The notes under the pieces were generated by a model. The model did no database searches, was not told the origin of the DNA, and saw only the letters and a list, made by a program, of their open reading frames with translations. A DNA stretch of 61,991 nucleotides, filler included, from Gemmatimonadota bacterium (lineage in GTDB: Bacteria > 4572-55 > J002), in assembly GCA_003697105.1 (NCBI GenBank). It is 6 parts of 6 records of this genome, joined end to end, with 100 filler letters (N's around TTAATTAATTAA, not from the genome) between each part and the next. Parts side by side here need not be neighbours in the genome. Positions count along the whole stretch, not along the records: positions 33,644 to 42,971 come from RFFQ01000103.1; 5 more parts are not named here. One strand, 5' to 3'. The translations under genes were made by a program, and so were the position numbers. Each line of letters opens with the position of its first letter. Position 1 is the first letter of the stretch. This document shows, piece by piece, positions 1,967 through 58,583 of the stretch.

Positions 1967-2139
1967 TCGGGTCACCAAATTATATAGAATTTGCCACCGT
2001 TAAGAAAGTGTCCAAAACCCCAAAATGAAGCACCTGAGTGCTTGAACCCTCTTTAGAAAGATGCAATTCAGAGCGATACTCGCGTCCTGAAGAAGCATAA
2101 ACCCGCCACACCTTTCCCCGATTGTGGAGACCATATCTG

Positions 2140-5100
2140 ATGAAAATCACCTGGATACTTTTGGTACAGGTCGTATTAGCCTGCCCTATTTTTGCCGGAG
2201 AAATACCGGATTCGTTACGAATTTCCCAATCAGATTCACTGGCGATGCGGGGGCAGGATTCCTTGGCAGTGGGTAATGCCGGTGCCGCCTTAACCTATTG
2301 GGAGCAAGGTTACAATCTGATTGAGAATATCCCTGGACAAGAAGCCCGGATCGCGGCATACCTAAACGCTTTTGGTGTGGCTCACGAACACTTAGGGCAC
2401 TATGACAAAGCCGTTCAGGCATATCAAACCGCCGCTACCTATGCTATCGAACAAGGGGTCTTCTCGACCGCCGGACTGGCGTATAAAAATTTGGGATTAC
2501 TATACCACCGCATCTGGAATGATTCTGAAAAAGCGTTAGCATACACCCGCCAAGCCGAAGAAATGTACCAAAAGGCAGGGGATGTACGTGCCCAACTCCA
2601 AGCAAAAAATGACAGAGTTACCTTCTATTGGGCAGCAGAAGATTACGAATCTGCTTTACAGCTAACCCGCGAATTGATCGAAGGATGGGCAACCTTGCCA
2701 GATAGCCTCGAACTTGCCTACAACTTGCACAATGCCGGTCTTCTGCTCAATAATCTGGGACGCTATGAAGAGAGCGAAGCCTACTTTATCCAAGCGGTAC
2801 CCCTCTATACTCGCTTTGAAGAATATTCCAATTTGATGGAAGTTATCCGCTGGATTGCCATCATGCGCCGCAACCAGCACAAATTTGAGGACGCCATCAC
2901 CACCTCACAAGCCTATATCGAGATGGCACGAATACTTGACCCGAATGCCCTCCTTGATGCCTACGAAACTCTGGCAAGCACCTATTATCAAATGGGAGAG
3001 TGTGAAGCGGCAATTGCCACCTATGACACCCTGTACCACCTCGCCCAAACCGCAGATGACCTAGAACGGCAACGCAATGCGCTTTATTACACCGGTGTCT
3101 GCCTCAAAAATAACGGTGCGTATGATCAAGCGCGGGCAAAATTTGAAGCGGCAGCAACCTTCGACCAGCAACTGGAAAATACGGCACAGTTATCCTTGGA
3201 TTATAACATGATGGGCATTTGCTATGACCAATTAGACCAGCAGGAATTAGCGATTCCGGCATTCTTGAAATCGGCGCAACTTGACAGCATAAATGGCAAT
3301 CCCAAGGATGTGGGAATCAACTACCGCAATGTTGCCCTGATGTACCATGAATTGGCAGATTATACTACCGCCCAAATGTACTATGAGCAAGCGATCCAAT
3401 GGCACCAGACGACCCAAGACAGCAGTGAATTAATAGACGATTTCGATCAAGCCGGCGATAACTTCCAAAAATTAAAACAGTTCGATCTCGCCTTGAGTGC
3501 CTACCACCAGCAACGGATGCTGGCAGAAGCCCGCGCCGATACCCACCAGATCGCGAAAGCGTACCAATCGTTGGGGGAAACCTACCGCCACCTGAAACAG
3601 CCACGGCAAGGTATCGCATATTATGAAAAAGCACTGGCACTTGATCCCAGCGGTATCTATCTGGATTTGGGATATACCTTTAATGGATTGGCATTGTGCT
3701 ATGACGATCTGGATGACTATCCCCGCGCCCTAACCTACTTTTTACAAGCTGCTCAAGCCGATAGTTTAAATGGGGATGAAAGCGATTTTGCCCTGAATCT
3801 GCAAAATGTCGCCCTCACATACACCGACATGGGGCAGTACGATAACGCCGCGGCGTACTATCAACGCGCCCTTGCCATTCACCAAAACCTAAATGATTTT
3901 AGTGAGATGGGTGATGATCAGCAAGGAATCGGAGATATGTTTTATAACACCGGACAATATGATGATGCGTTGCAAGCATACCAGCAGGCATTAGCGTACT
4001 ACCAGCAAGCAAAAAACCAGGCCGGTATTGCCCAAACGTTCGACCGGATAGGCGATGCCTTCTCCAGTACCGGACACGTCGATAGTGCCCAAGCGTATTA
4101 TGAACAGGCAAATACCATCTTTGTAGCGCGGAATGATGCCAGCGGGCAAGCCAGTGTGGCGGTCAGTTTGGGACTCATGGAAACGGAACGTGGTAATACA
4201 ACCGCGGCATTAGACCAGTTTCAACGCGGCTTGGAACTCTATCAAATGCTACAAGATAGCTCCAACATTGCCATCGTTTACGAAAATTTAGGTGTCACCC
4301 TCAACCGCATGGGACGTAATGAAGAAGCCTTTACCTACTACCAACAGGCGATTGAAATCATGCAAAAATTGGGTGAAAACGCGAATCTGGCGCATGTATA
4401 TCAAAATTTGGCGACTACCTATAGCACCCTCGGACACTATCCCCAAGCACGGGATTACTACGAAATCGCCCTAGCGATCTATCGCCGCATCAACGACCGT
4501 AAAAATGAAAGCGCCCTCATAGCGAACCTTGCCTACGTTTACCTTTCTACCTCCAACTACCGCCGGGCAGAAGAACGGTTTATGGAAGCGTTGGAAATTT
4601 CCCACGAAATCGGAGATAGACCCGGACAAGCTATTATTTTTGAAGGACTTAGCGATACGTACCTGCGCCTTGGAAATTACCCTCTTGCTCTTGAATACGC
4701 AAATTTAAGTTTGGAAATCTATCAGGATATCGGTGACCGCTGGGGAGAAGGCGGCGCTTACCTCACCCTCGGCAACGCCTATTTTGGCAAAGATGAGTAC
4801 CAAACCGCCATCAAATTTTATCAAAAATCATTGGAAATTGGACAAGAAACCCAAAATATGAACTTACGCGGTACCCAGTACAACAATTTGGGAGTGATGT
4901 ATTTCCATTTGGGCGACTACGATCAGTCTATGGAACACCTCAACCGTGCGGAAGCACTTTACCACAGCACCGGGGATCGCTATGGACTCGCCTTGACCCT
5001 TGCCAACTGGAGTGAAATGTACACCGAAAAAGGCGACTATGCTCGCGCCTTGGAAAGTGCCACCCGGGCACTGAATATGTATCGTGAGATGGAAGTAACC

Positions 5101-7542
5101 GGGCGTTCCGCCTGGATGATGCATGATTTAGGCAAACTCCACCGGGAATTGGGGAATTATGACCGCGCCTTTGCCTTATTGGATTCTGCCCTAGCGATCT
5201 ACCGCTCAATTGGGCAAAAAACGGACACCGGCAACGTCTTGGCAGAGATCGGCTTCACCCATCAGGAACGAGCAGAATTTGATGCCGCTTTGGATTACTA
5301 CCAGCAATCCTTACAGATCGCCGAAGCGGTCGGACGGCGCAAGGAAAAAGGCAAATTTTTGATGCTTATCGGCTCGATCCACACTGCCCGAGGCGAATAT
5401 ACCCAAGCCTTAGAACGCTATGACACGGTTTACCAGTTATTTAACGAAATTGAATATCGCGTGGGGGTGCGCGATGTGGCGGAAAAACGGGGGAAAGTTC
5501 ATTTTTATTTGGGCGATTATGAGCGCGCCTTACAACAGTATCGCATTGCGTACCACATCGATACGGAACTGGGACGCAAAGTGGCTCAAGCAAAATTGAC
5601 CCTGAAAATCGGACAAGTCGAATTGGCACAAGGTAAATTTAACGCCGCCAAAACAACCTTGAGCCAGATTGAGACCCTTGAGGTCAATACGCCCCGGCTA
5701 AAAGCGGCAGCCGCCCATCGATTGGCACAAGCCAAATTGGCACTCGGTGAAATAGAGACCCTAGACCAACAGCTCCAACAGGCGTTGGAATGGTACCGCA
5801 CCAGCGAAGATCGATTGGGCATGGCAGAAGTGTATTTGACCCAAGGGGATTATCTCTTGCGCCGCCAGCAATACCCAGCGGCAACCGAGGCATACACCGC
5901 CGCCCACCATCTCGCACTAGAAATCGGTGTACCGGAACTGGTCTGGCAAGCCCAATGGGGCATCGGACGGGCATTGGCGGGATTGAACCAGATCGATTCT
6001 GCGGTAACCCATTTACAAGCGGCAGTCCAAACCGTAGAATCATTGCGGGAACAATTGGCTTCCGAAAATATCCAGCAGTCTTATAACACCAACAAGATGC
6101 AAATTTATGAGGAGCTTATCCAACTCCTGTTTGACTTGAACCGCGAAAAAGAGGCGCTGGAATATTTAGAACGGAGCCGTTCCCAATTGTTGCGAGACTC
6201 CTTCCGGGGATTGAATTACGGTACAAATGAAGAAAGCAGTGAAACATTAAATCGTCTCAAGGAATTGGATGCCCAAAATGCCCGCTTAACAGAACAGATT
6301 ACCGCCGAAAAAGCAAAACCATTTGCGAAACAGAATCAGAAAAAGATTGAGGAACTCAGCCGCCTTGTCGCCTCCAACGAAGCCGAATTTAACGAGTTGA
6401 TCTTCATTCTGGAAGCCGACCCCGACTATAAAAACCTGATTGCCATCCGCCCAGACCAGTTTAGTGATTTGCAGAGCAAAATTCCGCCGGGGAGTCTCTT
6501 TTTGGAATACTTCCCCTCCCAAACGGAATTGTATATTTTTGCGATCACGCCGGATCAATTAACGGCTAGCTCGGTTGAAATCCCTCGGGATGAACTGAAT
6601 CAACTGGTCACCCGCTTTCGACGCCAAATGGACCGGGAAGCCATACTCTTGCGGGATGGGATGCCCACCCATGTTAGCAGTTGGCAAGCGGAAACGGAAG
6701 TTGCACCACTCAAAGCCCTTATCACTCAATTATACGCCATTTTAATCCGCCCGATTGCCGCTGCCATTGAACCCGTGGAAACGCTCACCGTCATCCCTAC
6801 CGGGTCACTTTATTATTTGCCGTTCGCGGCGCTCGGCACTGAAGACGAAAACGGCAACTTACAATTTTTGATTGAAACCAAACGGATCACAACCCTCACC
6901 GCCGCCACATTGCAGGATTTAATCGCTGAAAAAAAACCGGAAACCGGCGAAAATTGTTTACTTGCGTTTGGTAACCCCGATGGAACATTAGCAGGCGCAC
7001 TGAAGGAAGTCATTGAAATAAAAGAGGTTTTCCCGGAGGAGGCGTACATCTACACCTTGAGTGACGCCACCGAAAGCCGGGCTAAAACGGAAGCGGGCAA
7101 CTGCGGGGTACTCCATTTTGCCACACATGGCAACCTAGACCCCAACTCGCCCATGCAATCCTTTTTGACGATGGCAAGCGATAATTCCGAGGATGATGGC
7201 AAACTGACCCTTGTGGAAATTCTGCGATTGCCGCTCAAAAAGCAGACTCATCTGGTAACGCTCTCTGCCTGCAATACTGCCATGGGCGAAAACCCTTCCG
7301 GCTTGGAGCTGATCAGCCTTGCTCGTGCCTTTGCGATGGCGGGTACACCATCTCTTATTGCGTCTTTGTGGAGTGTCAGTGATGACGCCACACAGGAATT
7401 AATGAAGACGTTTTACGCAAACTGGGGCAAAATCGATAAAGCCGAAGCCCTCCGGCAAGCACAACTCACCCTGATGGCTCAACCCGAATTTCGCCACCCG
7501 TTTTACTGGAGTCCGTTCGTGCTGATTGGTGATTACCGGTAA
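2140..7542 (+). CDS. Exported TPR-repeat protein with C-terminal CHAT (caspase-like) peptidase domain
   Basis: Signal peptide MKITWILLVQVVLACPIFA from ATG 2140; long TPR array; CHAT motifs VIPTGSLYYLPFAAL, LHFATHG (His), LVTLSACNT (Cys), SLWSVSD, HPFYWSPF. Confidence 0.93.
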   Translation: MKITWILLVQVVLACPIFAGEIPDSLRISQSDSLAMRGQDSLAVGNAGAALTYWEQGYNLIENIPGQEARIAAYLNAFGVAHEHLGHYDKAVQAYQTAATYAIEQGVFSTAGLAYKNLGLLYHRIWNDSEKALAYTRQAEEMYQKAGDVRAQLQAKNDRVTFYWAAEDYESALQLTRELIEGWATLPDSLELAYNLHNAGLLLNNLGRYEESEAYFIQAVPLYTRFEEYSNLMEVIRWIAIMRRNQHKFEDAITTSQAYIEMARILDPNALLDAYETLASTYYQMGECEAAIATYDTLYHLAQTADDLERQRNALYYTGVCLKNNGAYDQARAKFEAAATFDQQLENTAQLSLDYNMMGICYDQLDQQELAIPAFLKSAQLDSINGNPKDVGINYRNVALMYHELADYTTAQMYYEQAIQWHQTTQDSSELIDDFDQAGDNFQKLKQFDLALSAYHQQRMLAEARADTHQIAKAYQSLGETYRHLKQPRQGIAYYEKALALDPSGIYLDLGYTFNGLALCYDDLDDYPRALTYFLQAAQADSLNGDESDFALNLQNVALTYTDMGQYDNAAAYYQRALAIHQNLNDFSEMGDDQQGIGDMFYNTGQYDDALQAYQQALAYYQQAKNQAGIAQTFDRIGDAFSSTGHVDSAQAYYEQANTIFVARNDASGQASVAVSLGLMETERGNTTAALDQFQRGLELYQMLQDSSNIAIVYENLGVTLNRMGRNEEAFTYYQQAIEIMQKLGENANLAHVYQNLATTYSTLGHYPQARDYYEIALAIYRRINDRKNESALIANLAYVYLSTSNYRRAEERFMEALEISHEIGDRPGQAIIFEGLSDTYLRLGNYPLALEYANLSLEIYQDIGDRWGEGGAYLTLGNAYFGKDEYQTAIKFYQKSLEIGQETQNMNLRGTQYNNLGVMYFHLGDYDQSMEHLNRAEALYHSTGDRYGLALTLANWSEMYTEKGDYARALESATRALNMYREMEVTGRSAWMMHDLGKLHRELGNYDRAFALLDSALAIYRSIGQKTDTGNVLAEIGFTHQERAEFDAALDYYQQSLQIAEAVGRRKEKGKFLMLIGSIHTARGEYTQALERYDTVYQLFNEIEYRVGVRDVAEKRGKVHFYLGDYERALQQYRIAYHIDTELGRKVAQAKLTLKIGQVELAQGKFNAAKTTLSQIETLEVNTPRLKAAAAHRLAQAKLALGEIETLDQQLQQALEWYRTSEDRLGMAEVYLTQGDYLLRRQQYPAATEAYTAAHHLALEIGVPELVWQAQWGIGRALAGLNQIDSAVTHLQAAVQTVESLREQLASENIQQSYNTNKMQIYEELIQLLFDLNREKEALEYLERSRSQLLRDSFRGLNYGTNEESSETLNRLKELDAQNARLTEQITAEKAKPFAKQNQKKIEELSRLVASNEAEFNELIFILEADPDYKNLIAIRPDQFSDLQSKIPPGSLFLEYFPSQTELYIFAITPDQLTASSVEIPRDELNQLVTRFRRQMDREAILLRDGMPTHVSSWQAETEVAPLKALITQLYAILIRPIAAAIEPVETLTVIPTGSLYYLPFAALGTEDENGNLQFLIETKRITTLTAATLQDLIAEKKPETGENCLLAFGNPDGTLAGALKEVIEIKEVFPEEAYIYTLSDATESRAKTEAGNCGVLHFATHGNLDPNSPMQSFLTMASDNSEDDGKLTLVEILRLPLKKQTHLVTLSACNTAMGENPSGLELISLARAFAMAGTPSLIASLWSVSDDATQELMKTFYANWGKIDKAEALRQAQLTLMAQPEFRHPFYWSPFVLIGDYR

Positions 7543-11542: not shown

Positions 11543-11642
11543 NNNNNNNNNNNNNNNNNNNNNNNNNNNNNNNNNNNNNNNNNNNNTTAATTAATTAANN
11601 NNNNNNNNNNNNNNNNNNNNNNNNNNNNNNNNNNNNNNNNNN
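11543..11642. other. Artificial contig linker
   Basis: 44 N + TTAATTAATTAA (stops in all six frames) + 44 N. Confidence 0.97.
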
Positions 11643-21589: not shown

Positions 21590-23062
21590 ATGTATATTTA
21601 CAATAACTTATCGAACCGGAAAGAACGCTTTATCCCGTGCGAAGATAATCAGGTCAAAATGTATGTTTGCGGCATGACGGTACAGGATAAACCCCATATT
21701 GGGCACATGAAATCCTTTTTAACGGCGGATGTGATGCGCCGCTATCTGGAATACCGGGGATACCGCGTTAAACTTGTCCAAAACTTCACGGATGTGGACG
21801 ATAAAATTATCAACCGGGCTAACCAAGAAGGTGTACCCTATCTCACCGTTGCGAACCGGTATATTGAAGAATATTATCAGGTGTCAGATCGGTTGAATAT
21901 CCGTCGAGCGGATATTTATCCCCGCGCCACGGAACATATCCCCGATATTATCGCACTGATCCAACGGTTGATCGACAAGGGAGTCGCCTATGAAGCCGCT
22001 GGAGATGTCTATTTTGCGGTGGAAAAACATCCGGATTACGGTAAACTTTCCAACCGGTCGATTGCTGATATGATCGAAGGTACTCGTAAGGACGTCCAAT
22101 CCAATAAAAAACATCCCTTGGATTTTGCCTTGTGGAAAGCTGCCAAACCGGACGAACCCCATTGGGACAGTCCGTGGGGCAAGGGACGCCCCGGGTGGCA
22201 CATTGAATGTTCCGCAATGGCAATGAAATATCTGGGAGAAACCTTTGATATTCACGGCGGTGGGCTGGACCTCATCTTCCCGCATCACGAAAATGAACGG
22301 GCGCAGTCCGAAGCGGCAACCGGAAAACCGTTCGCCCATTTCTGGTGCGAAGGCGGTCTGTTGGAAATTGAAAATACCGCCACAAAAAAAGTTGAAAAAA
22401 TGTCGAAGTCACTGAATAACTTTTTTGCCATGTCCGACATTTTGGAGAAATTTGAACCGGATGCCGTGCGCATGTTCCTCATCTCCGGGCATTATCGCAG
22501 CCCCCTCAATTTCAGTGAAGCCCGCATGGCAGAGGCAAAAGCCCGCTTAGACCGGCTTCGCGAAACCTTCCGCAACATGAGCTTCATCCTGAAAGATTTT
22601 GATGATGATGCGACCCTCGATGTGGAAAGTAGCGAACCGGAAGTCAAAGAATTGTATGAAAAAGCAAAAGCCGTCCGCGAAAAGTTTGAAGCGGCAATGG
22701 ATGACGATTTTAACACCGCTCAAGCCATGGCGGTTTTGTTTGATGTGGCAAAAGCAGCCAATACGTTTATGGCATCCCGTCAGGAACGATTTTCCAGCAC
22801 GGATAAACGGGTACTTGACTATAGCCGGGGCATCTTACAGGACTTCCTGCACGTGTTGGGGTTCTCCGATGCCATTTTTGCCGAAGATACCCGCGCCACA
22901 GACATCACGGATGATCTGATCCAGATTCTAATCGAAGTGCGGAAAACCGCCCGAATGGAAAAACAATGGGCAATTGCCGACACCATCCGAAACCGGCTGG
23001 AAGCATTGGGCATCGCCTTAGAAGACCGCCCCGGTGGCGAAACCCGGTGGAAATGGAAATAA
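21590..23062 (+). CDS. cysS: Cysteine--tRNA ligase
   Basis: YVCG, HIGH, GRPGWHIEC, DIHGGG, FPHHENE, KMSKS. Confidence 0.97.
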   Translation: MYIYNNLSNRKERFIPCEDNQVKMYVCGMTVQDKPHIGHMKSFLTADVMRRYLEYRGYRVKLVQNFTDVDDKIINRANQEGVPYLTVANRYIEEYYQVSDRLNIRRADIYPRATEHIPDIIALIQRLIDKGVAYEAAGDVYFAVEKHPDYGKLSNRSIADMIEGTRKDVQSNKKHPLDFALWKAAKPDEPHWDSPWGKGRPGWHIECSAMAMKYLGETFDIHGGGLDLIFPHHENERAQSEAATGKPFAHFWCEGGLLEIENTATKKVEKMSKSLNNFFAMSDILEKFEPDAVRMFLISGHYRSPLNFSEARMAEAKARLDRLRETFRNMSFILKDFDDDATLDVESSEPEVKELYEKAKAVREKFEAAMDDDFNTAQAMAVLFDVAKAANTFMASRQERFSSTDKRVLDYSRGILQDFLHVLGFSDAIFAEDTRATDITDDLIQILIEVRKTARMEKQWAIADTIRNRLEALGIALEDRPGGETRWKWK

Positions 23063-23118
23063 ACCGCAACGGCAGGTGTACCCAATTCAACATCACCCGT
23101 ATATCAAGGAGGAAGCTC

Positions 23119-25059
23119 ATGCGCTATATCCTATTTGGTTTGTTTTGTTCGATGCTGACCAACCTACCTTTAGGGGCACAGCCCAACCCACCCGAAAATT
23201 TGACAGCAAATTCCCGTGGAAGCACCATCGATTTGACATGGGAAGCTCCCAGCGGCAATATCATTTTTGAAGATGATTTTGAGTCCTACCCGGATTTTGC
23301 GCAGGAGTTCAGCCCGTGGATACTGATCGACGGCGACGGGCTGGAGACATGGGGCATCCAAGAAGCAAGTTTCCCCGGCGAAGGGGAACCCATGGCATAT
23401 ATCATTTTTAATCCGAGCCAAACCGTCCCCCCAATTGGTGGCGGTGACCCCCATTCTGGAGATAAATACGCCGCTTGTTTTGCCTCCAATCCCAATGGAG
23501 GGCAAATATTCAATGATGATTGGATGATCACACCCCAACTTCAGCTCGGCACCGGCAGTTCGATTACCTTGTGGGCACGTTCGTACACGGCGGAATGGGG
23601 ATTGGAACGGTTCCGGGTACTCATCTCTACCACCGGCACGGAACCGGATGATTTTACCCTGATTTCACCCGGCGATTACGTCGAAGCGCCCACCACCTGG
23701 TCAGATTTTACCTATGATTTGAGTGATTACGACAATCAGGCAGTTCATCTCGCCATTCACTGTGTGTCTGAAGATGCCTTTTTCCTAATGGTTGATGATG
23801 TCGTGGTGGAATCCGAAGGCGCACCGGCATTTACCCGCACGGCCCGGAAGTCAATAGAACATGAAAAGCAGGTGATACGATCCACCGGAATGGACTTCGT
23901 TCAACGGAATATCCCTTCCAAACCGGCGAAATTCACCGCAGGAGCGTCAAAGCCCGCCTCGAAAACCGGCCAATTACGAGCACTGCAAAATTACACGATA
24001 TATCGCCGTGCCGGCGGGGATAACGAGACGTGGGAAAATATCGCGACGGTGCCCGGGGATGTGCTTGCCTATTCCGATACCGATCTGCCAGATGGCGAGT
24101 GGTGCTATCAGGTTACGGCGGTATATGACGAAGGCGAAAGCGACCCTAGCAATGTTGCCTGTAGTGAAGTTCCGGTACTATTTTTTGATAGCTTTGAAAA
24201 TTATGACGACTTCGCCATTGAATTTGGCAATTGGACGCTAATTGATGGAGATGGGTTGAGTACCTGGGGAATCCAACAAGTCGATTTTGAACACGAAGGG
24301 GACCCCATGGCATTTATCATTTTTAACCCCTCCGCTACGGAACCCCCGCTCTCCAGTGGATTCCCGCACACCGGACGAAAATATGCCGCGTGCTTCTCTT
24401 CCATTCCATCGGGGGGGCAATACAATGATGATTGGCTAATCAGTCCCCGAATTACGCTGGGTACAAATTCCAGTGTCCGGTTTTGGGCAAGTACGTATCA
24501 GGAATATCAAGGACGGAGCGAGCGCTTTCAAGTGCTGGTCTCCACTGGCGGTACAGAGCCAAATGAGTTTACCCTGATTTCCGAAGGAGACTACATCGAA
24601 CCTCCGCTAGAATGGCAAGAATACACTTTTGACCTTAACGATTATAACGGACAGAGTGTCTATATTGCCATCCACTGTATCTCAGAAGATGTTTTTTTCT
24701 TGCAAGTTGATGATTTCAAGGTAGTTTCTAGCGGCGGCACGAGCGTCGGGTCCACCGTTCAGGCAATTCACACTCCGCAGCACTACCAACTGATGCCGAA
24801 CCACCCGAACCCTTTCAACCCCCAAACAGAGATTCGCTACACCCTGCCCCAACCGGATCAGGTGACGTTGACCATTTACGACCTAAAAGGCCGAGTCGTA
24901 AAGCAACTTGTTGACCAATACCAAACAGCAAATCAATATTCGGTCGTGTGGGACGGGCGAGATGATAGCGGAGCGGAACTGTCCAGCGGAGTTTATTTCT
25001 ATCATCTAGAAACACAGAACGGCTATCATGCCACTCAACAGATGGTCTTACTCCGGTAA
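23119..25059 (+). CDS. Secreted protein with two cleaved-adhesin (choice-of-anchor J-like) domains, FN3 and C-terminal FlgD-Ig/T9SS-like domain
   Basis: AGGAGG RBS before ATG 23119; signal peptide; repeated W-x-LIDGDG and DDW(M/L)I(T/S)P modules; NHPNPFNP...WDG...SGVYFY. Confidence 0.85.
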   Translation: MRYILFGLFCSMLTNLPLGAQPNPPENLTANSRGSTIDLTWEAPSGNIIFEDDFESYPDFAQEFSPWILIDGDGLETWGIQEASFPGEGEPMAYIIFNPSQTVPPIGGGDPHSGDKYAACFASNPNGGQIFNDDWMITPQLQLGTGSSITLWARSYTAEWGLERFRVLISTTGTEPDDFTLISPGDYVEAPTTWSDFTYDLSDYDNQAVHLAIHCVSEDAFFLMVDDVVVESEGAPAFTRTARKSIEHEKQVIRSTGMDFVQRNIPSKPAKFTAGASKPASKTGQLRALQNYTIYRRAGGDNETWENIATVPGDVLAYSDTDLPDGEWCYQVTAVYDEGESDPSNVACSEVPVLFFDSFENYDDFAIEFGNWTLIDGDGLSTWGIQQVDFEHEGDPMAFIIFNPSATEPPLSSGFPHTGRKYAACFSSIPSGGQYNDDWLISPRITLGTNSSVRFWASTYQEYQGRSERFQVLVSTGGTEPNEFTLISEGDYIEPPLEWQEYTFDLNDYNGQSVYIAIHCISEDVFFLQVDDFKVVSSGGTSVGSTVQAIHTPQHYQLMPNHPNPFNPQTEIRYTLPQPDQVTLTIYDLKGRVVKQLVDQYQTANQYSVVWDGRDDSGAELSSGVYFYHLETQNGYHATQQMVLLR

Positions 25060-32081: not shown

Positions 32082-33543
32082 TTATTCAATCGCTTCCACA
32101 AAATACATCCGCATGTTGCCCTTTCCTTTGACTTCCTGCGGTTGGCGTGGGATGAATTTTACCGGAATGTTGAACGCTTCTACATTTTCCTGCAAAATGG
32201 AATAGGTCATCTCCGAGATGTTAATCCGCATCGGTTCGGAGTTGCTTTCCATTCGGCTGGCAGTATTTACGGTATCCCCAAAAATATCATACAAATATTT
32301 TTTGGTCCCGACAACCCCCCCCACAACTTCCCCAGAGTGGATCCCGATCCGGATGTACCAGGTTAGGTCATGTGTTCGGTTCCGGTTTTTTAGATATTCA
32401 AGGATTTCAAGTGCGGCATTCACTAAATTATGAGCATGATGTTCGTTTGGTTGCGGCATTCCACAAACCGCTAAATAGGCATCCCCGATGGTTTTAATAC
32501 GCTCACAGCGATTTTTCTCCATAATTTCATCAAATCGGGTAAATAAGTCGCTGAGTTCATTAATGATCACCCCTGCCGGTAGTCCCGAAGATATTTTGGT
32601 AAATCCAGCAAAGTCCGAGAAAAAGACCGATACATCATGGAACAATTCGGGTTCGGTTTTGCCGGTTTCCTTGAGGTCGTTCACAATACTTTGAGGTAGA
32701 ATGTTCAGCAATAATCGTTCACTTTTCTCCCGTTCGCGGGCAAGTTCCACATTACGCAAACGATAAATTTCAGCTTCACGCTTATTTTTTTCGCTTTCAT
32801 AGCGCGTTTGCATTTCGGCAATTTGACGACTCTTTTCTTCATTAAAAATAGATTCCTTCAATTCTGCATAACGGCGGTAATAGTCTAGTGCAGATTGATA
32901 ATCGCCTTCAATTTCAGCTAACTCTGACATCGTTTTGTAGAAATTGAATTCGAGATCTTTTACCCCGATCTCCAGTGCTATACTTAAACCCTGTTGTAAC
33001 CAGAGGCGAGCCGCTTTTAGGTTTCCAAGTACAATTTCAGCATCCCCCATACTCAATTTTGAGCGGGCAATACCATATTTATCTTTCAATTTTTCATAAA
33101 TGTTCAAGGCGTTTCGATGAAATTCTAGAGATTTCTCAGACTCACCTTTTTTATGATAATAGTCTGCGATATTACTATAACAGTGGGCAATGCCATTTTG
33201 GTCACCAATGGCTTCTCGTATTGCTAGTGACTTTTGGTAATATGTGAGTGCTTGGTCATATTCTTCTTGCAGCCAATATACAATCCCAATATTATTGTAT
33301 GATCCTGCCGCGCCATACCGGTCTCCAATGGCTTCAAATGTTTCGCGGGAACGGTTGTAATACTCCAAGGCTTGTTCAAAATATTGTTGATCTTGATAAA
33401 CGACCCCAATATTATGATACGTTCGGGCAATTCGAACTTTGTCGCCCACCTCATCGTAAATTTTGATGGCTTTCATGTAGTATTCTAACGCTTGGTCATA
33501 ATCACTCAGATTTTTATAGACAATACCTATATTGGAATAACAC
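32082..33543 (-). CDS. TPR-containing class III adenylate/guanylate cyclase (5' truncated)
   Basis: TPRs (YNNIG), ERLLLNILP, FSDFAGFT, KTIGDAY, RIGIHSG, YDIFGDTVNTASRMES; frame open to the linker. Confidence 0.93.
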
Positions 33544-33643
33544 NNNNNNNNNNNNNNNNNNNNNNNNNNNNNNNNNNNNNNNNNNNNTTAATTAATTAAN
33601 NNNNNNNNNNNNNNNNNNNNNNNNNNNNNNNNNNNNNNNNNNN
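33544..33643. other. Artificial contig linker
   Basis: 44 N + TTAATTAATTAA + 44 N. Confidence 0.97.
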
Positions 33644-33778: not shown

Positions 33779-33807
33779 TTGATTCCGCGCCTCGGAACAT
33801 CTATAAT
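33779..33807 (+). promoter_or_regulatory. Sigma70-type promoter for the ProRS-like gene
   Basis: TTGATT-17 nt-TATAAT. Confidence 0.7.
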
Positions 33808-33896: not shown

Positions 33897-35549
33897 ATGC
33901 GTTGGACTCAATCTGCTATCCAGACTCAAAACACCGTTCCGGGGGACGTAAATGTAACGTCGCTTGCTTTGCTCCTCCAAGGAGGTTTCCTCGACCTGTA
34001 TGCCAGCGGGTTCTTTCACTATTTGCCCCTTGGTCAACGGATGCTTCAAAATCTGATCACCACTTTCAAAGCCAAATTGGCACTGTTAAACGGGCAAGAA
34101 TTCATTCTTTCACCCCTTATCTGGGATATGAACGGGTTGCACGATACGGGGATGCCGCGGTTTACCGTTTCTGACCAGCATGACCGGTATTTTTCCCTGC
34201 CAGATTCACATCTGGTTGAATTTATAAAACTGGCGACGAAACGATTACGAAGCTATCGGGATTTGCCGCAGGTGTGGTACCAAATTCAGCCCCATTTTAT
34301 TGATTGGGCAAAACCCAAATCCGGTTTGGTGCAGAGCCGTGCCTATTGGCTCGGGGAAGTGTATCTCTTTAGCCCTAATGAATCTACCCGGCGAGAACTG
34401 GCAGATCATCTCAAAATGTTCCATCTACAATGGTTTCAACAGTGTGGCATTCCGGTAATTCAGACCAAAACGGGCGATTTCCTGCTCTCTCCCACTGGCG
34501 AACAACGGGTGGTCGGTTGTGCCAACTGCGGGTATTATGCAGATCAACAAATTGCCCCAACCGTTGCAAAATCGTATCCTAGCGGAGATATGGAGACCAC
34601 AGCTAAAAACGTGCATACACCAAACAAGCGCACCATTGGCGAAGTATCAGCTTTTCTGGGGATTCCGGCACACCGGTTCATCAAAACCTTGCTGTTTATG
34701 GTTGATGAGACGCCGCACTTGGTACTGATCCGGGGGGATCATGATGCCAGCGAACCCAAGTTAAGAGAGCATTTTGGCGATGCCCATCTCCGCACGGCGA
34801 CGGCAACTGAAATTGAACAGATATTAAAAACGCCGGTTGGTTTTTTGGGACCTCAAGGGCGCACCGGCATTCCCATTACGGCGGATATAGCGCTAAAGGG
34901 AGCGGTTGGGATGGTCACCGGTGCGAATATCGATCAATATCATACTATTGGGCTTACTGTGGGACAGGATTTCCCAGTGGATCGGTGGGCGGATGTGCGT
35001 TTGGCACAGGAAGGGGATGGCTGCCCACAGTGTTCACAACCGGTAGCATCGTACCGCGCAATCCAGTTGGTACACCGGCGCGAAATCATCCGTACATCCG
35101 CCACATTTCAGGATGCCAACGGTGTGGATCAGCCACTTCAAGTGAGTATGAGCCATCTTTTTTTGGAGCGCCTCATCGCGGCGCTCATTGAGGTCAATCA
35201 TGATGATGATGGCATCTGTTTTCCCCCGCTTGCGGCACCGTTCGCCGTCATAATTTTACCGTTAAATATGGCAGATGACGCCACCCGAAATGTCGCGGAA
35301 GACCTGTACCGGCAGTGCCAGCAACGGGGTATTTCCGTCTTAATGGATGACCGGGATGCCCATCCCGGGGTGAAATTCAAAGATGCCGACCGGATCGGTT
35401 GCCCCTACCGGCTCGTGATCGGTCGCCGGGGATTGAAAAATAACACCGTTGAAATTCAAATTCGTCGCACTCAGGCGAAAATGAGCATTCCGTATGATCA
35501 GGTGATGGATCAGCTTACTCAATTGCTTTCAACGGATTCATCAGCATAG
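33897..35549 (+). CDS. Bacterial-type prolyl-tRNA synthetase paralog with degenerate catalytic domain and intact INS editing and anticodon-binding domains
   Basis: ProRS architecture (SYRDLP..YQIQ; INS: VHTP, IKTL, IRGDH, GFLGP, GAN...H; anticodon domain DDR...GVKFKDAD.IG.P); motif 2, motif 3 and Pro-binding residues substituted. Confidence 0.85.
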   Translation: MRWTQSAIQTQNTVPGDVNVTSLALLLQGGFLDLYASGFFHYLPLGQRMLQNLITTFKAKLALLNGQEFILSPLIWDMNGLHDTGMPRFTVSDQHDRYFSLPDSHLVEFIKLATKRLRSYRDLPQVWYQIQPHFIDWAKPKSGLVQSRAYWLGEVYLFSPNESTRRELADHLKMFHLQWFQQCGIPVIQTKTGDFLLSPTGEQRVVGCANCGYYADQQIAPTVAKSYPSGDMETTAKNVHTPNKRTIGEVSAFLGIPAHRFIKTLLFMVDETPHLVLIRGDHDASEPKLREHFGDAHLRTATATEIEQILKTPVGFLGPQGRTGIPITADIALKGAVGMVTGANIDQYHTIGLTVGQDFPVDRWADVRLAQEGDGCPQCSQPVASYRAIQLVHRREIIRTSATFQDANGVDQPLQVSMSHLFLERLIAALIEVNHDDDGICFPPLAAPFAVIILPLNMADDATRNVAEDLYRQCQQRGISVLMDDRDAHPGVKFKDADRIGCPYRLVIGRRGLKNNTVEIQIRRTQAKMSIPYDQVMDQLTQLLSTDSSA

Positions 35550-35667
35550 CGTGTCATGATTTTTGCAGATATTTACAAAACGAACTGTAAAATTACACGA
35601 TAGCTTCTTTATCGTGTTGAGATTCTGCAAATTTCTGCAAAAAATCAACTGTAAAAAGGAGTCTCCG

Positions 35668-38001
35668 ATGCGAACCCTGTTAAGTATCCTCCTCTGTGTT
35701 GCCAGTTTTAACATAGCCCACGCCGAAACATGGCAGTGGGAAACCTACACCAACCCCAATTATGTGAATCATATTTGTGTCGAAAATGATACCCTTTGGT
35801 GGTCAACCACCGGGGGCGTCGTTCAATTTAATACCCAAATGGATACCGTGGTTCGCATTTATCACCGGGAGGACGGGTTAAGCGGCAATTATGTCACCTG
35901 TTCGGTGATTGACCCGTATGGGAATCACTGGTTTGGAACGCGCGATCATTATATGACCCGATTGACTCCTCAGGGGGAATGGACGGTTTATGATGAATTT
36001 GATGGCATCCGTACCAACGCCCAAATCAATTGTGCAACGATCATTGGTGATACCCTCTGGATTGGGACGAGTCAGGGTGTGGGGGTGCTGGATGTGCGCC
36101 GCCCGCAAAACGGATTTTTATGGCTGGATACGAACGATGGATTAGTCAATAACAATGTTCAGGTTATCCAAAAATTTAAGGGAGACCTCTGGTTTGGGAC
36201 GCGGGGAGGTATTTCCATCTGGCATCATTTTCAGGAATGGACAAACTACACCCCAGAATATTTTGCCCGTGCCGATGGCGCAGATTGCCGGGGACTGGTA
36301 CAGGATTGGGAAGGTGGGGTCGTCTCTGCCAGCAAACGCGGATTGTATCGCTTGGCACCACAAGAAGAGGAATGGGATTTGATTGGCAACCTTAACAACC
36401 GGCAATTATTAACAATTGCGGTATATGATTCCAGTATTTGGACTTCCAGTTATGTCTCTTCATCTTCGGCACACCTGTATCGGGTCTATTTTGATGGAAG
36501 TCGGTGGCAAAGTGAGACCGTCGAAACAGGGCTTAACGGATTGGGACGGAGTTTAGCTTTTGCCGTGGATTCCCAAAACCGGCTCTGGACCTCCGATTGG
36601 GGTGCGGGCGTCGCCGTTTTAGAGAATGGCAACACCTGGCGGGATTTTAGCGCCCCCGGTATTGTGGGCAATCATGTCCGTAAAGTGGATCGTGCCCCCA
36701 ATGGTGACTTGTGGCTCGCGGTCGAGTCCGATTACGGGGCAAACAGCGAACCCATTGAATACAAGCAACAAGAGGGCGGCGCGGCACGGTTTTCCATCGA
36801 ACTCAATCAGTGGGTCAATTACACCCGGGCGGACGGGTTACTGATGAATACGGTTAAATCCATGTGTGTTACCCAAGATGGGCGGGCGTGGTTCTCCCAA
36901 TGGCCCTACGGATTTATGGAATTGGATGATCAGGGTACCGTTGATAAAGAAGACGACACATGGTCGCAAGTCCGACGACCTACAATTCACAGCGAGGTAG
37001 TTTACCGCCTGTTTCGAGACCCCGCAGGGTTCAGTTGGGTTGGTACGTTGTTTTGGGAGAGCAATAATGGCATCCATCAAGGCGGCGTGGAGGTCGAAAA
37101 CCCCGAAACCGGTGAATTCACGTTTTGGGGACACCCACAGGTGATCTCATTTGATAAAAACAACATCCGGGATAATGTGGAAATTTACGACATTCATCTG
37201 GCAGATGATGGCTTGTACTGGCTCGCCGGTTTTGGTGGAATTTCGGTAATTGACACACGCGGAACACTTTTCGACCCCACAGATGACCGCACCGAACGCT
37301 GGGACGCAGAAAATGAAGGGCTATTGGCACTAGAGACCTATTGTGTCACCACAGATGCTCAAGGCATCGTCTGGATCGGGGGGTTAGGCGGTCTGAATCG
37401 CTTGGATGTAAACGGCACCCCTTTTGATAAATCAGATGACAATATTCAAGTGATTTTTGAACTGCCTGTGGAAGAATTAACCATCGATCCAGAGGGCAAC
37501 CTTTGGTGCGCTACCCGTAATTACGGCGTGATTCGCTATAACCCGGCAACCGGTGAGCAACTGACCATCGATTCCGACCGTTACCCGCTGAGTTCGGATG
37601 TGGTCAACAGTGTCTCGATTGAGGAAAACGGTACGGAGCGCATCGTCTGGTTTTCCACCGGTTTGGGACTGAACAAACTGACCATTGACCTCACCGGTAG
37701 CGATCCCAACCCCGGTGATGAGGTCAGCGAGGGACCCTATCCCAATCCGTTTCAGCCCTCGGCGGGACACACGCACCTAACGTTTGAAAATCTCACCAAT
37801 GAAGGCACACTTCAAATTTTTGACCTGAGCGGGGATTTAGTCCATGAAGTGAATCTCGAAGCTGAAATGGCACCCTCCAGCACCCTTTGGCAGTGGGATG
37901 GAACAAATACCAGAGGTGCTGATGTCGCCAGTGGCGTCTATATTTACCGCGTGGATTCACCGTCTGGTATCCGCACCGGTAAATTTGCAATCATCCGTTA
38001 A
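35668..38001 (+). CDS. PorZ-like secreted beta-propeller protein with C-terminal FlgD-Ig/T9SS-like domain
   Basis: AAGGAG RBS, signal peptide, WETYTN start, repeated DGL..N.V / LWFGT blades, PYPNPF...WDG...ASGVYIY...GKFAIIR. Confidence 0.8.
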   Translation: MRTLLSILLCVASFNIAHAETWQWETYTNPNYVNHICVENDTLWWSTTGGVVQFNTQMDTVVRIYHREDGLSGNYVTCSVIDPYGNHWFGTRDHYMTRLTPQGEWTVYDEFDGIRTNAQINCATIIGDTLWIGTSQGVGVLDVRRPQNGFLWLDTNDGLVNNNVQVIQKFKGDLWFGTRGGISIWHHFQEWTNYTPEYFARADGADCRGLVQDWEGGVVSASKRGLYRLAPQEEEWDLIGNLNNRQLLTIAVYDSSIWTSSYVSSSSAHLYRVYFDGSRWQSETVETGLNGLGRSLAFAVDSQNRLWTSDWGAGVAVLENGNTWRDFSAPGIVGNHVRKVDRAPNGDLWLAVESDYGANSEPIEYKQQEGGAARFSIELNQWVNYTRADGLLMNTVKSMCVTQDGRAWFSQWPYGFMELDDQGTVDKEDDTWSQVRRPTIHSEVVYRLFRDPAGFSWVGTLFWESNNGIHQGGVEVENPETGEFTFWGHPQVISFDKNNIRDNVEIYDIHLADDGLYWLAGFGGISVIDTRGTLFDPTDDRTERWDAENEGLLALETYCVTTDAQGIVWIGGLGGLNRLDVNGTPFDKSDDNIQVIFELPVEELTIDPEGNLWCATRNYGVIRYNPATGEQLTIDSDRYPLSSDVVNSVSIEENGTERIVWFSTGLGLNKLTIDLTGSDPNPGDEVSEGPYPNPFQPSAGHTHLTFENLTNEGTLQIFDLSGDLVHEVNLEAEMAPSSTLWQWDGTNTRGADVASGVYIYRVDSPSGIRTGKFAIIR

Positions 38002-39116: not shown

Positions 39117-39889
39117 TCGATATAATTGTGACCGGCGCGTATGGCAGGATGGGGCACCGGCTGGCGGAATGCATCGTGGAAGACCCGCAACTCCATTTAG
39201 CCGGATTAACCGAACATCCAGAGCACCCACAATTGGGCACGCCGGTGTGTGGGGTTGAGGTATGCACCGATTTAAAAGAAATTATTGACAAAGGACTTGT
39301 TATTATTGATTTTACCACCCCGCAAGCCTCCGTGAACGCCGCCCAACTGGCAGTTGCTCACCAAAAAGCATTTATTTGCGGCACAACCGGCTTTTCTCCC
39401 GAACAATTGTCTGTGCTAAAACATGCCGGCTCTAAAATTCCGGTAGTGTATTCGCCAAATATGAGCGTGGGAGTCAATCTATTATTCAAATTAGTTGCCG
39501 ATGTGGCATCTCTGTTGAACGAGGGTTACGATGTGGAAATTGTAGAAGCCCATCACCGTTATAAAAAAGATGCCCCCAGCGGGACAGCACAGCGGCTAGC
39601 TGACATCATCGCGGATACGTGGAATCTGGACCCAAAACAGGCGTTTGAATACGGAAGAGAGGGTCTTACTGGCGAACGAAAAGACCACATTATCGGAGTT
39701 CATGCCGTGCGTGGCGGCGACATCGTCGGAGAACACACCGTCAGCTTTATCGGCTTAGGTGAACGCCTAGAATTAACCCACAAAGCTCACAGCCGGGATA
39801 CCTTCATCCGCGGAGCACTAAGCGCCGCCAAATGGATTGTAAATCAACCGGCGGGTTTCTACACCATGCACGATATTTTGAGTTCGTGA
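39113..39889 (+). CDS. dapB: 4-hydroxy-tetrahydrodipicolinate reductase
   Basis: GAYGRMG, IDFT, GTTG, EAHHRYKKDAPSGTA. Confidence 0.97.
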   Translation: MIDIIVTGAYGRMGHRLAECIVEDPQLHLAGLTEHPEHPQLGTPVCGVEVCTDLKEIIDKGLVIIDFTTPQASVNAAQLAVAHQKAFICGTTGFSPEQLSVLKHAGSKIPVVYSPNMSVGVNLLFKLVADVASLLNEGYDVEIVEAHHRYKKDAPSGTAQRLADIIADTWNLDPKQAFEYGREGLTGERKDHIIGVHAVRGGDIVGEHTVSFIGLGERLELTHKAHSRDTFIRGALSAAKWIVNQPAGFYTMHDILSS

Positions 39890-39999
39890 GTTGGGGAGTT
39901 GGGGAGTTTGGGAGTTCGTGAGTTGGGGAGTTCGGGAGTTTAGGAGTTGACGAGTTGGGGAGTTCGGGAGTTCGGGAGTTTGGGAGTTTGGGAGTTTTT
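39880..39999 (+). repeat. Tandem array of 15 octamers GAGTTnnn (mostly GAGTTnGG)
   Basis: Direct inspection: exact 8-nt phase, invariant GAGTT. Confidence 0.9.
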
Positions 40000-42971: not shown

Positions 42972-43071
42972 NNNNNNNNNNNNNNNNNNNNNNNNNNNNN
43001 NNNNNNNNNNNNNNNTTAATTAATTAANNNNNNNNNNNNNNNNNNNNNNNNNNNNNNNNNNNNNNNNNNNN
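42972..43071. other. Artificial contig linker
   Basis: 44 N + TTAATTAATTAA + 44 N. Confidence 0.97.
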
Positions 43072-52950: not shown

Positions 52951-53050
52951 NNNNNNNNNNNNNNNNNNNNNNNNNNNNNNNNNNNNNNNNNNNNTTAATT
53001 AATTAANNNNNNNNNNNNNNNNNNNNNNNNNNNNNNNNNNNNNNNNNNNN
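52951..53050. other. Artificial contig linker
   Basis: 44 N + TTAATTAATTAA + 44 N. Confidence 0.97.
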
Positions 53051-58483: not shown

Positions 58484-58583
58484 NNNNNNNNNNNNNNNNN
58501 NNNNNNNNNNNNNNNNNNNNNNNNNNNTTAATTAATTAANNNNNNNNNNNNNNNNNNNNNNNNNNNNNNNNNNNNNNNNNNNN
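58484..58583. other. Artificial contig linker
   Basis: 44 N + TTAATTAATTAA + 44 N. Confidence 0.97.

Follow-up and report, generated by a model that had tools for sequence, protein, structure and literature searches.

A bacterial-type prolyl-tRNA synthetase with a degenerate aminoacylation site and intact editing and anticodon-binding domains is a candidate trans-editing factor

Introduction

Mis-incorporation of alanine at proline codons is prevented either by the INS editing domain inside bacterial prolyl-tRNA synthetase (ProRS) or by small free-standing INS homologues. ThrRS-ed of crenarchaea derives from a synthetase and has retained editing and recognition of the anticodon, with charging carried out by the product of a second gene. 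In the accessible part of a 2024 review (PMC11295145), the architecture of ThrRS-ed is given as an editing domain joined to an anticodon-binding domain, next to a separate catalytic ThrRS, and the members of the INS superfamily other than the INS domain itself are given as single-domain proteins. The available sections of two papers (PMC10404621, PMC9437257) present ProRSx of Streptomyces and Kitasatospora, a bacterial-type ProRS paralogue that coexists with the canonical ProRS, and the portion consulted of another paper (PMC11229370) reports active P-type and E-type ProRS in one genome of Bacillus thuringiensis.

Here we analyse P0001, a ProRS-like gene in a 61,991-nucleotide stretch of DNA (the window). 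By analogy, P0001 appears to share with ThrRS-ed the logic of editing and anticodon recognition without charging, but it belongs to another synthetase family with another editing fold, and its catalytic domain is present as a seemingly dead scaffold whereas that of ThrRS-ed is absent; the reduced Chloroflexota forms described below are a closer parallel to ThrRS-ed than P0001 is. The hydrolytic domain of P0001 is homologous to that of ProXp-ala and of the free-standing INS-superfamily trans-editing proteins, and the proposed substrate, Ala-tRNA-Pro, is the same. However, ProXp-ala, YbaK and ProXp-x are single-domain proteins of ~150-200 aa, whereas P0001 has 550 aa, three domains and a full anticodon-binding domain. 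Like ProRSx, P0001 derives from a bacterial-type ProRS; ProRSx, as far as the available sections on it go, is active, has altered anticodon specificity and lies beside its special tRNA, whereas in P0001 the active site is dead and the anticodon domain conserved, and its contig carries no tRNA gene. In B. thuringiensis both ProRS are active, whereas P0001 would be a P-type copy without charging. Finally, P0001 shares domain order and predicted fold with E. faecalis ProRS (2j3l), a P-type enzyme with INS; it differs in that its aminoacylation motifs are destroyed, three of its active-site loops are shortened and its scores fall below the curated family cut-offs.

Results

The window consists of six contigs with N-linkers between them. 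Because one such joint lies immediately before the P0001 contig (Table 1), the sequence upstream of 33644 is no true neighbour of P0001, whose start is 253 bp from the contig end. The length of this contig equals that of the longest contig on record for P0001, and two hot-spring runs contain it at depths of ~27x and ~23x. As originally predicted, P0001 is an uninterrupted ORF of 550 aa plus stop, with zero internal stops. The prediction had also assigned the gene its own promoter. The TTGATT-17-TATAAT hexamer pair is indeed present, but sites of this kind are at chance level in the region (3 observed versus 3.9 +/- 2.1 in shuffles), so that it counts as a possible promoter of P0001. The Shine-Dalgarno match is weak, 3 nt, and ~10 of the 27 window genes examined have no better one; both signals are uninformative. 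Rfam detected four tRNAs in the window, none of them on the P0001 contig. Comparison of the contigs of 4 sequencing runs with the P0001 contig revealed 5 differences inside the gene, a number that does not suffice to test the domains separately. Among the variants in the other runs, 3 are synonymous and 1 alters a codon. Runs X1, X2 and X3 have contigs free of insertions and deletions within the gene.

Table 1. Coordinates of P0001, its domains and flanking features, in window positions
Feature	Position	Strand	Evidence
Pseudo-ProRS gene P0001	33897..35549	+	ORF; NF006625 350.9 bits vs cut-off 558; AF2 model
Artificial contig joint, N44 + TTAATTAATTAA + N44	33544..33643		P0001 contig = 33644-42971, length 9328
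Sigma-70-like hexamer pair TTGATT-17-TATAAT	33779..33807	+	10/12 matches, ~90 nt upstream of ATG
N-terminal class II catalytic part (CatN), residues 1-194, degenerate	33897..34478	+	19/39 conserved columns kept
INS editing domain, residues 195-384, intact	34479..35048	+	15/15 conserved columns kept
C-terminal catalytic strands and motif 3 start (CatC), residues 385-420, degenerate	35049..35156	+	1/9 conserved columns kept
Motif 3 helix (R425) and class IIa anticodon-binding domain (ABD), residues 421-550, intact	35157..35546	+	15/17 conserved columns kept

HMMER identified P0001 as a bacterial-type ProRS homologue that matches E. faecalis ProRS (2j3l) over its full length (E 3.5e-78). Pfam placed the domains in the predicted ProRS order, catalytic-INS-catalytic-anticodon. 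The tRNA_edit domain (PF04073, residues 241-352, 71.8 bits versus a cut-off of 25.5, 6.8e-20) and the HGTP_anticodon domain (PF03129, residues 451-542, 72.3 bits versus 21, 3.6e-20) were detected clearly, and the class II core was marginal (33.6 bits versus 29.3). P0001 fell short of both NCBIfam ProRS equivalog models, scoring 274.6 against a cut-off of 306.7 for TIGR00409 and missing that of NF006625 (Table 1), which all 16 canonical controls exceeded with scores of 622-851. The AF2 model (pLDDT 94.7, TM 0.90 to 2j3l) predicts a complete, ProRS-like fold, but the alignment behind the model consists of normal ProRS, and the real folding of the remodelled catalytic core is therefore not demonstrable from it. 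Confidence is high for the helix region of motif 1 (residues 44-62), and the lowest pLDDT values (72-79) fall right behind motif 1, at residues 71-90.

Aligned with E. faecalis ProRS and 119 homologues, P0001 bears out every motif change that had been read from the sequence. The T-H-E-E of the PTHEE motif reads S-H-L-V (S104, L106 and V107 for T, E and E). F-R-D-E of motif 2 has become F-I-D-W (I135 for R and W137 for E), so that the Arg which is invariant in this class II motif is gone, and the second half of the motif, G-L-x-R-x-R-E-F, reads G-L-V-Q-S-R-A-Y (Q146 for R and A149 for E). An 11-residue gap behind residue 193 eliminates the GG..SHEF loop, the GHIF.LG..YS strand is altered with a 5-residue gap after residue 397, and a further gap, of 4 residues, follows residue 74; deletions affect three active-site loops. 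The three Gly positions of motif 3 are S417, H420 and F422. The catalytic replacement, predicted to be systematic, covers most motif residues but spares two arginines, R148 (the second motif 2 Arg) and R425 (motif 3). Thus P0001 lacks the class II motif 2 pattern (fRxE ... RxxxF with its invariant Arg), of which only R148 is kept; the combination of the motif 3 glycine-rich strand and Arg with the GHIF.LG..YS strand, though R425 is kept; and the proline/ATP-binding T-H-E-E and GG..SHEF loop. Of 14 signature residues for aminoacylation it retains 3, whereas each of the 62 representatives classed as canonical has 12 or more.

The decay is domain-selective, as had been proposed. We scored the columns whose conservation across 56 canonical ProRS is 90% or higher (Table 1) and measured the identity of P0001 to the same 56 sequences. 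CatN identity was 0.269, compared with 0.498 among canonical sequences, and CatC identity 0.202 compared with 0.507, both outside the canonical per-sequence ranges. INS (0.325 versus 0.341; range 0.255-0.386) and ABD (0.370 versus 0.401; range 0.337-0.450) lie inside them. An INS domain no better conserved than the catalytic domain, which would have counted against the prediction, is therefore not what we found. All 7 INS key residues (K263, G315/G318/P319, G342/N344 and H349) are kept as claimed, and G280, D281, K288 and D330 are intact too; we take the INS Lys and His to be the equivalents of E. coli K279 and H369. P0001 thus combines a PF04073 match over cut-off with the Lys, G...GP and GxN...H features of the INS superfamily, and a PF03129 match over cut-off with the anticodon-domain motif DDR..GVKFKDAD.IG.P, which is preserved as predicted. 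Stops, frameshifts and even decay, the marks of a pseudogene, are absent: decay is confined to the catalytic parts, and neither P0001 nor its analogues carry the stops that had been named as counter-evidence. By a rough estimate rather than a formal test, ~8 nonsense mutations would be expected if the ~153 extra catalytic-domain replacements were neutral, and the probability of no stop would be ~2e-4.

The databases searched held no close orthologue of P0001, the best non-self match being 39% identical, so that the evidence for selection on P0001 itself comes from one sequence and the 5 strain differences. Part of the divergence reflects the depth of the lineage, since the CysRS of the same organism has no relative closer than 53% (best match 47% in GTDB genomes and 53% in the protein collection). 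We found no closer homologue of P0001 in 20 genomes of the phylum of the best CysRS match, in which full-length ProRS-like matches were 31-35% identical to P0001 and three partial ORFs 34-38%.

Degenerate ProRS recur among more distant relatives. We took as representatives 124 non-self homologues of at least 500 aa and called degenerate those with at most 7 of the 14 signature residues. Degeneracy with retention of the INS catalytic residues was seen in 44 of the 124, and 43 of these 44 scored below the NF006625 cut-off. The INS key residues averaged 6.64 of 7 in degenerate and 6.50 in canonical representatives. On a FastTree tree their distribution requires 11 or more independent origins. When 76 sequences of mixed type were aligned, 14 columns were invariant: INS holds 6 of them, the C-terminal stretch 421-550, which comprises the motif 3 helix, linker and anticodon domain, holds the other 8, and the catalytic motifs hold none.

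The genomic setting of such proteins was followed in a sample of 121 Chloroflexota genomes. Twelve of them had only a sub-cut-off ProRS-like ORF (11 of these ORFs were checked by sequence; the twelfth, from G083, is a fragment outside this check). All 12 genomes with only degenerate or reduced ProRS encode a type-I (archaeal/eukaryote-type) ProRS over the cut-off, the separate synthetase expected of a ThrRS-ed type of system, and none encodes a canonical bacterial ProRS. The canonical enzyme was present in 69 genomes, 21 of which also had a type-I match (20 over the cut-off). The reduced forms have lost the entire catalytic core but retain INS and the anticodon domain, indicating that the function shared by the class does not reside in the catalytic domain. 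These reduced analogues are under purifying selection, with dN/dS of 0.172 (dS 0.59) and 0.150 (dS 1.08) in two unsaturated pairs. Two type-I-only genomes, G014 and G015, showed no INS-family protein, which speaks against trans-editing being obligatory in these genomes. NCBIfam has no ProXp-ala model; its YbaK model was the only one to match free-standing INS-like ORFs, with scores under the cut-off. In G047 a bacterial-type ProRS is broken into three frames and occurs beside a type-I ProRS.

Discussion

Together these data favour, with a probability of roughly 0.55, the reading that P0001, a ProRS of the bacterial type, no longer aminoacylates and has been kept by selection as a scaffold for a working INS site and a tRNA-Pro anticodon-binding domain. 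Judged from its sequence, P0001 is most likely a tRNA-Pro-specific trans-editing deacylase that works beside a separate active ProRS, and the original trans-editing interpretation is supported: as far as the computational checks proposed with it could be made, each gave the outcome that it had foreseen. We infer the deacylase activity and the specificity for Ala-tRNA-Pro, and likewise the presence and type of an active ProRS in the source organism. The anticodon domain would select tRNA-Pro, whose acceptor end would reach the INS pocket formed by Lys263, the G315-P319 loop and His349, and Ala-tRNA-Pro made by the separate active ProRS would be hydrolysed in trans. The partner would most likely be an archaeal/eukaryote-type ProRS, without an INS domain.

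A functional role other than editing is unlikely but deserves weight. P0001 might bind tRNA-Pro for sequestration, delivery or regulation, or its catalytic domain might be remodelled for a new ligand, for which the HisRS paralogue HisZ is a precedent. The anticodon domain conserved to the level of real ProRS, the survival of about half of the conserved CatN columns, including the SYRxLP..YQIQ strand, and the completeness of the predicted fold are all consistent with such a role. However, pure binding would have no need of the INS chemistry residues that P0001 keeps in full, and the Chloroflexota reduced forms have dispensed with the catalytic core while keeping INS and the anticodon domain. 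A small chance remains for a relic nearing loss, a native proS that was displaced by a second ProRS, inactivated and left open by chance. P0001 is indeed a single sequence without orthologues, and its Shine-Dalgarno match is weak, although many window genes do no better. Against a relic stand the unevenness of the decay, with INS and ABD in the canonical range, and a frame open across 550 codons despite heavy change in the catalytic domain; the truly broken ProRS of G047 looks different.

Bacterial ProRS dimerises via its catalytic domain, and P0001, whose motif 1 helix region is confidently predicted, could be an inactive subunit that supplies editing or tRNA binding to an active bacterial-type partner. 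We consider this improbable: the 12 degenerate-only Chloroflexota genomes offer no canonical bacterial-type ProRS as a partner, and in P0001 the 4-residue deletion and the lowest pLDDT lie directly after motif 1. That P0001 is the working, very divergent ProRS of the organism is highly improbable. ProRS is essential, no other proS is visible within the window, and two catalytic arginines survive, one in motif 2 and one in motif 3; but a 62 kb sample is silent on proS elsewhere in the genome, Ile and Trp stand in for the invariant Arg and Glu of motif 2, deletions have removed the loops for proline and ATP, and the count of signature residues is far from that of every canonical-classed sequence.

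Beyond P0001, we give even odds to the view that the trans-editing candidate independently exemplifies a class of 'fossil ProRS' that is widespread and seems not to have been described, in which bacterial-type ProRS repeatedly loses aminoacylation in genomes that have come to contain an archaeal/eukaryote-type ProRS without editing, and the survivors serve as multi-domain, anticodon-guided trans-editing enzymes. A likely starting state is the coexistence of P-type and E-type ProRS, as in B. thuringiensis. The forms would span full-length dead synthetases such as P0001 to proteins of ~400 aa made of an N-terminal stub, INS and the anticodon domain, and the class would correspond, on the ProRS side, to ThrRS-ed of crenarchaea. 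It would also provide the first trans-editing factor of the INS superfamily that recognises the tRNA body by itself. The literature searched, to which the supplementary ProRS trees of PMC11229370 and PMC10404621 did not belong, contained no description of a catalytically dead ProRS with intact INS. If true, a dead synthetase that proofreads under the guidance of the anticodon would add a third way of keeping alanine out of proline codons, and the class would reveal a stepwise route from an essential enzyme to a quality-control factor once a second ProRS does the charging.

Annotation pipelines label degenerate ProRS 'proline--tRNA ligase', and for the lineages that carry them genome-based synthetase inventories and metabolic or essential-gene models would then be wrong. 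One degenerate cluster contains proteins whose names assign them to Clostridium amazonitimonense and C. simiarum; these strains, if in culture, would make the idea testable at the bench. A family model found no degenerate ProRS in 151 genomes of one clostridial family, and there was no close match to protein P0351 in 401 genomes. It counts against the trans-editing reading that none of 101 genomes of Nitrospirota, the phylum with the ProRS nearest to P0001, contained a degenerate ProRS. Some Nitrospirota genomes encode INS-less ProRS forms of 430-474 aa.

The P0001 gene and its contig

The gene under study encodes P0001, a homologue of bacterial-type prolyl-tRNA synthetase (ProRS), and its reading frame is uninterrupted, as originally noted. 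Pfam searches assigned residues 241-352 to the aminoacyl-tRNA editing domain (INS; 71.8 bits) and residues 451-542 to the class IIa anticodon-binding domain (72.3 bits). The class II core is marginal (33.6 bits, cut-off 29.3), and its match stretches over residues 89-433 because INS is inserted within it. P0001 aligns end to end with bacterial-type ProRS, yet falls under both curated NCBIfam cut-offs (NF006625, 350.9 against 558; TIGR00409, 274.6 against 306.7). The closest solved structure is E. faecalis ProRS, 2j3l (E 3.5e-78).

The hexamers of the promoter proposed for this gene are present, but such pairs are equally frequent in shuffled sequence. Gene neighbourhood across the five artificial joints is not real; since P0001 lies so near its own contig end, the TPR-cyclase gene upstream is no true neighbour. 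Downstream, the same contig encodes a propeller/FlgD-Ig protein, a membrane protein, dapB and a Vut_1 transporter, and it carries no tRNA genes.

Features of the window
Feature	Position	Strand	Remarks
Pseudo-ProRS ORF (P0001)	33897..35549	+	550 codons, open throughout
Hexamer pair TTGATT-17-TATAAT	33779-33807		Upstream of P0001; equally common in shuffled sequence
Contig bearing the P0001 gene	33644-42971		9328 bp; gene 253 bp from contig end
Five artificial joints, N44-TTAATTAATTAA-N44	11543-11642, 33544-33643, 42972-43071, 52951-53050, 58484-58583		Six contigs from a binned assembly make up the window, end to end
Tandem array	39880-39997		8-nt unit (GGGAGTTN-like), between dapB and Vut_1 transporter gene
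1806-aa protein	2122-7542		Long TPR array, C-terminal CHAT protease domain
TPR-adenylate/guanylate cyclase	32082-33476
Secreted proteins	22966-25059, 35563-38001		FlgD-Ig / type IX secretion-like C-terminal sorting domains

Decay of the aminoacylation site

The catalytic residues had been described as systematically replaced, and both a HMMER alignment to 2j3l and a MAFFT alignment with 119 homologues bear this out. P0001 has S-H-L-V where ProRS has T-H-E-E, and a 4-residue gap just after motif 1. In motif 2, F-R-D-E becomes F-I-D-W and the following R-x-R-E-F becomes Q-S-R-A-Y. The GG..SHEF loop is absent (11-residue gap), the GHIF.LG..YS strand is shortened by a 5-residue gap, and the three glycines of motif 3 are replaced by S, H and F. 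Only 3 of 14 signature residues of the site are kept (H105, R148 and R425). The invariant arginine of class II synthetases sits in motif 2, and in P0001 it is an isoleucine. Judged from what is established for class II enzymes, P0001 is unable to activate proline.

The decay is domain-selective. P0001 was compared with 56 canonical ProRS representatives (each of at least 540 aa and with at least 13 of the 14 signature residues, taken from a library that had been clustered at 50% identity), columns conserved in at least 90% of them being counted as conserved. The identities of INS and the anticodon domain lie within the canonical per-sequence ranges and those of both catalytic parts lie outside theirs, hence INS is clearly better conserved than the catalytic domain.

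Identity and conserved columns by domain
Domain	Identity of P0001 to canonical	Identity within canonical set	Conserved columns kept
N-terminal catalytic	0.269	0.498	19/39
C-terminal catalytic	0.202	0.507	1/9
INS	0.325	0.341	15/15
Anticodon domain	0.370	0.401	15/17

A recurrent class of degenerate ProRS

No relative of P0001 above 39% identity was found in a 5.8-billion-protein collection or among 1.84 billion representatives. The CysRS of the same organism has no relative above 53% in the protein collection or above 47% in GTDB genomes; by these comparisons the source organism is itself isolated.

Signature residues divided 124 non-self representatives of at least 500 aa (25 shorter rows having been left out beforehand) into 62 canonical (at least 12/14), 18 intermediate and 44 degenerate (at most 7/14); as clustering at 50% over-represents fast-evolving sequences, 44/124 is not a frequency among genomes. 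Degenerate representatives keep on average 6.64 of 7 key INS residues, against 6.50 in canonical ones, and all have the anticodon-domain motif. An independent NCBIfam check of 78 of the 125 sequences placed 43/44 degenerate proteins under the NF006625 cut-off (the exception, P0248, scores 573 bits), 16/16 canonical controls above it, and 13 intermediates above and 5 below. A mixed 76-sequence alignment has 14 invariant columns: 6 in INS, 8 in the C-terminal segment (residues 421-550: motif 3 helix, linker and anticodon domain) and 0 in the catalytic motifs. Degenerate members with a named source belong to Armatimonadota, Eremiobacterota and Acidimicrobiia and to two Clostridium species; their annotation reads "proline--tRNA ligase" or "hypothetical".

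A FastTree phylogeny (142 rows, INS and anticodon-domain columns only) requires at least 16 changes between canonical and degenerate states, 11 of them forced by well-supported branches alone; the method readily joins long branches, making the number of independent origins a rough lower bound. P0001 falls in a nine-row clade (support 95) with eight canonical Nitrospirota-type ProRS, and so looks like a separate loss event.

No degenerate ProRS turned up in 101 Nitrospirota genomes, in 151 from a single clostridial family or in the 20 of the phylum that gave the best CysRS match. In about 15 of the 101 Nitrospirota genomes there are bacterial-type ProRS ORFs (429-474 aa) whose match is confined to model positions 1-238 and 387-558 (for example G202:C2:31137-32369 and G168:C1:1986426-1987622) and which thus lack INS; such genomes would need editing in trans.

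Partner enzyme and reduced forms in Chloroflexota

The original prediction expected an editing-less, archaeal/eukaryote-type (type-I) partner ProRS, and analogues in Chloroflexota support it. Among 121 genomes, bacterial-type ProRS scored over cut-off in 69 (including G036, flagged as unpublished) and type-I in 70; 21 of the 69 also have a type-I match, 20 over cut-off. A sub-cut-off ProRS-like ORF occurs alone in 12 genomes (G007, G016, G029, G051, G060, G069, G074, G083, G087, G105, G114 and G122), and these have type-I ProRS over cut-off in 12/12 and canonical bacterial ProRS in 0/12.

Eleven of the 12 ORFs were aligned, the G083 one being an unverified fragment from the edge of a contig, and they form a reduction series. 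Loci L104, L136 and L137 encode proteins of 500-540 aa with a degenerate core. The other eight (~390-417 aa) retain a ~55-residue N-terminal stub, INS, the motif 3 helix and the anticodon domain, the catalytic core being deleted; as these eight group in a single clade, the 12 genomes cannot be counted as 12 independent cases. Reduced-protein pairs gave dN/dS of 0.172 (dS 0.59) and 0.150 (dS 1.08), and three further pairs 0.10-0.17 with saturated dS. Low dN/dS together with type-I co-occurrence indicates that the class is selected for and lives beside an editing-less ProRS. Two genomes with type-I ProRS alone hold no INS-family protein; a trans-editor is therefore not obligatory.

One slightly sub-cut-off ProRS (509 bits; G130:C14:5423-7096, locus L146), with type-I ProRS alongside, has T-D-E-A for T-H-E-E and W-D-D for R-D-E, and may represent an early stage of the same decay. 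Two full-scoring bacterial-type genes each occur in Chloroflexota G056, G065 and G101 and in Planctomycetota G008 (C54:2221-3957 and C22:7676-9451; L102, L105).

Pseudogene or trans-editing factor

Simple pseudogenisation was rejected; the frame is open. Were the ~153 extra catalytic-domain replacements neutral, ~8 nonsense hits would be expected from the gene's own codons, and the probability of no stop would be ~2e-4, a rough estimate and not a formal test. Contigs from two other samples differ within the gene at 5 positions, three synonymous third positions and two adjacent ones in codon 86, which points towards constraint, the number being too small for a test. By contrast, in Chloroflexota G047 the bacterial-type ProRS gene (C179:1582-3135, locus L147) is spread across three frames, with an intact type-I ProRS alongside; this gene is a true pseudogene or else reflects an assembly error. 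An AF2 model of P0001 from a 76-row alignment (pLDDT 94.7, TM 0.90 to 2j3l) indicates compatibility with the fold and nothing beyond, as the alignment is mostly normal ProRS.

The original observation is thus real and its interpretation the best supported: on the sequence evidence, the gene is read as a catalytically dead ProRS kept for its editing and tRNA-recognition domains. The likeliest role for P0001 is that of an Ala-tRNA-Pro deacylase editing in trans, alongside a distinct active ProRS that is probably a type-I enzyme.

A full-text literature search (main texts) yielded no account of a ProRS that is dead yet has its INS domain intact. ThrRS-ed combines an editing and an anticodon domain (PMC11295145); ProRSx, the sole ProRS paralogue listed when duplicated synthetases were reviewed in 2022, is active and has altered anticodon specificity (PMC10404621 / PMC9437257); and P-type (bacterial) and E-type ProRS coexist in B. 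thuringiensis, both active (PMC11229370). Dead ProRS with intact editing parts is a recurrent and apparently undescribed architecture, and its recurrence makes it more interesting than one odd gene would be.

Other features of the window

Summed depth over the tandem array is very high in 4/4 sequencing runs, with many unrelated contigs contributing to it, and the array has no Rfam match. Three sigma-54 activators are encoded elsewhere in the window. The sorting domains of the secreted proteins suggest an organism of FCB-like groups. Sequencing runs containing the P0001 contig are labelled hot-spring metagenomes.
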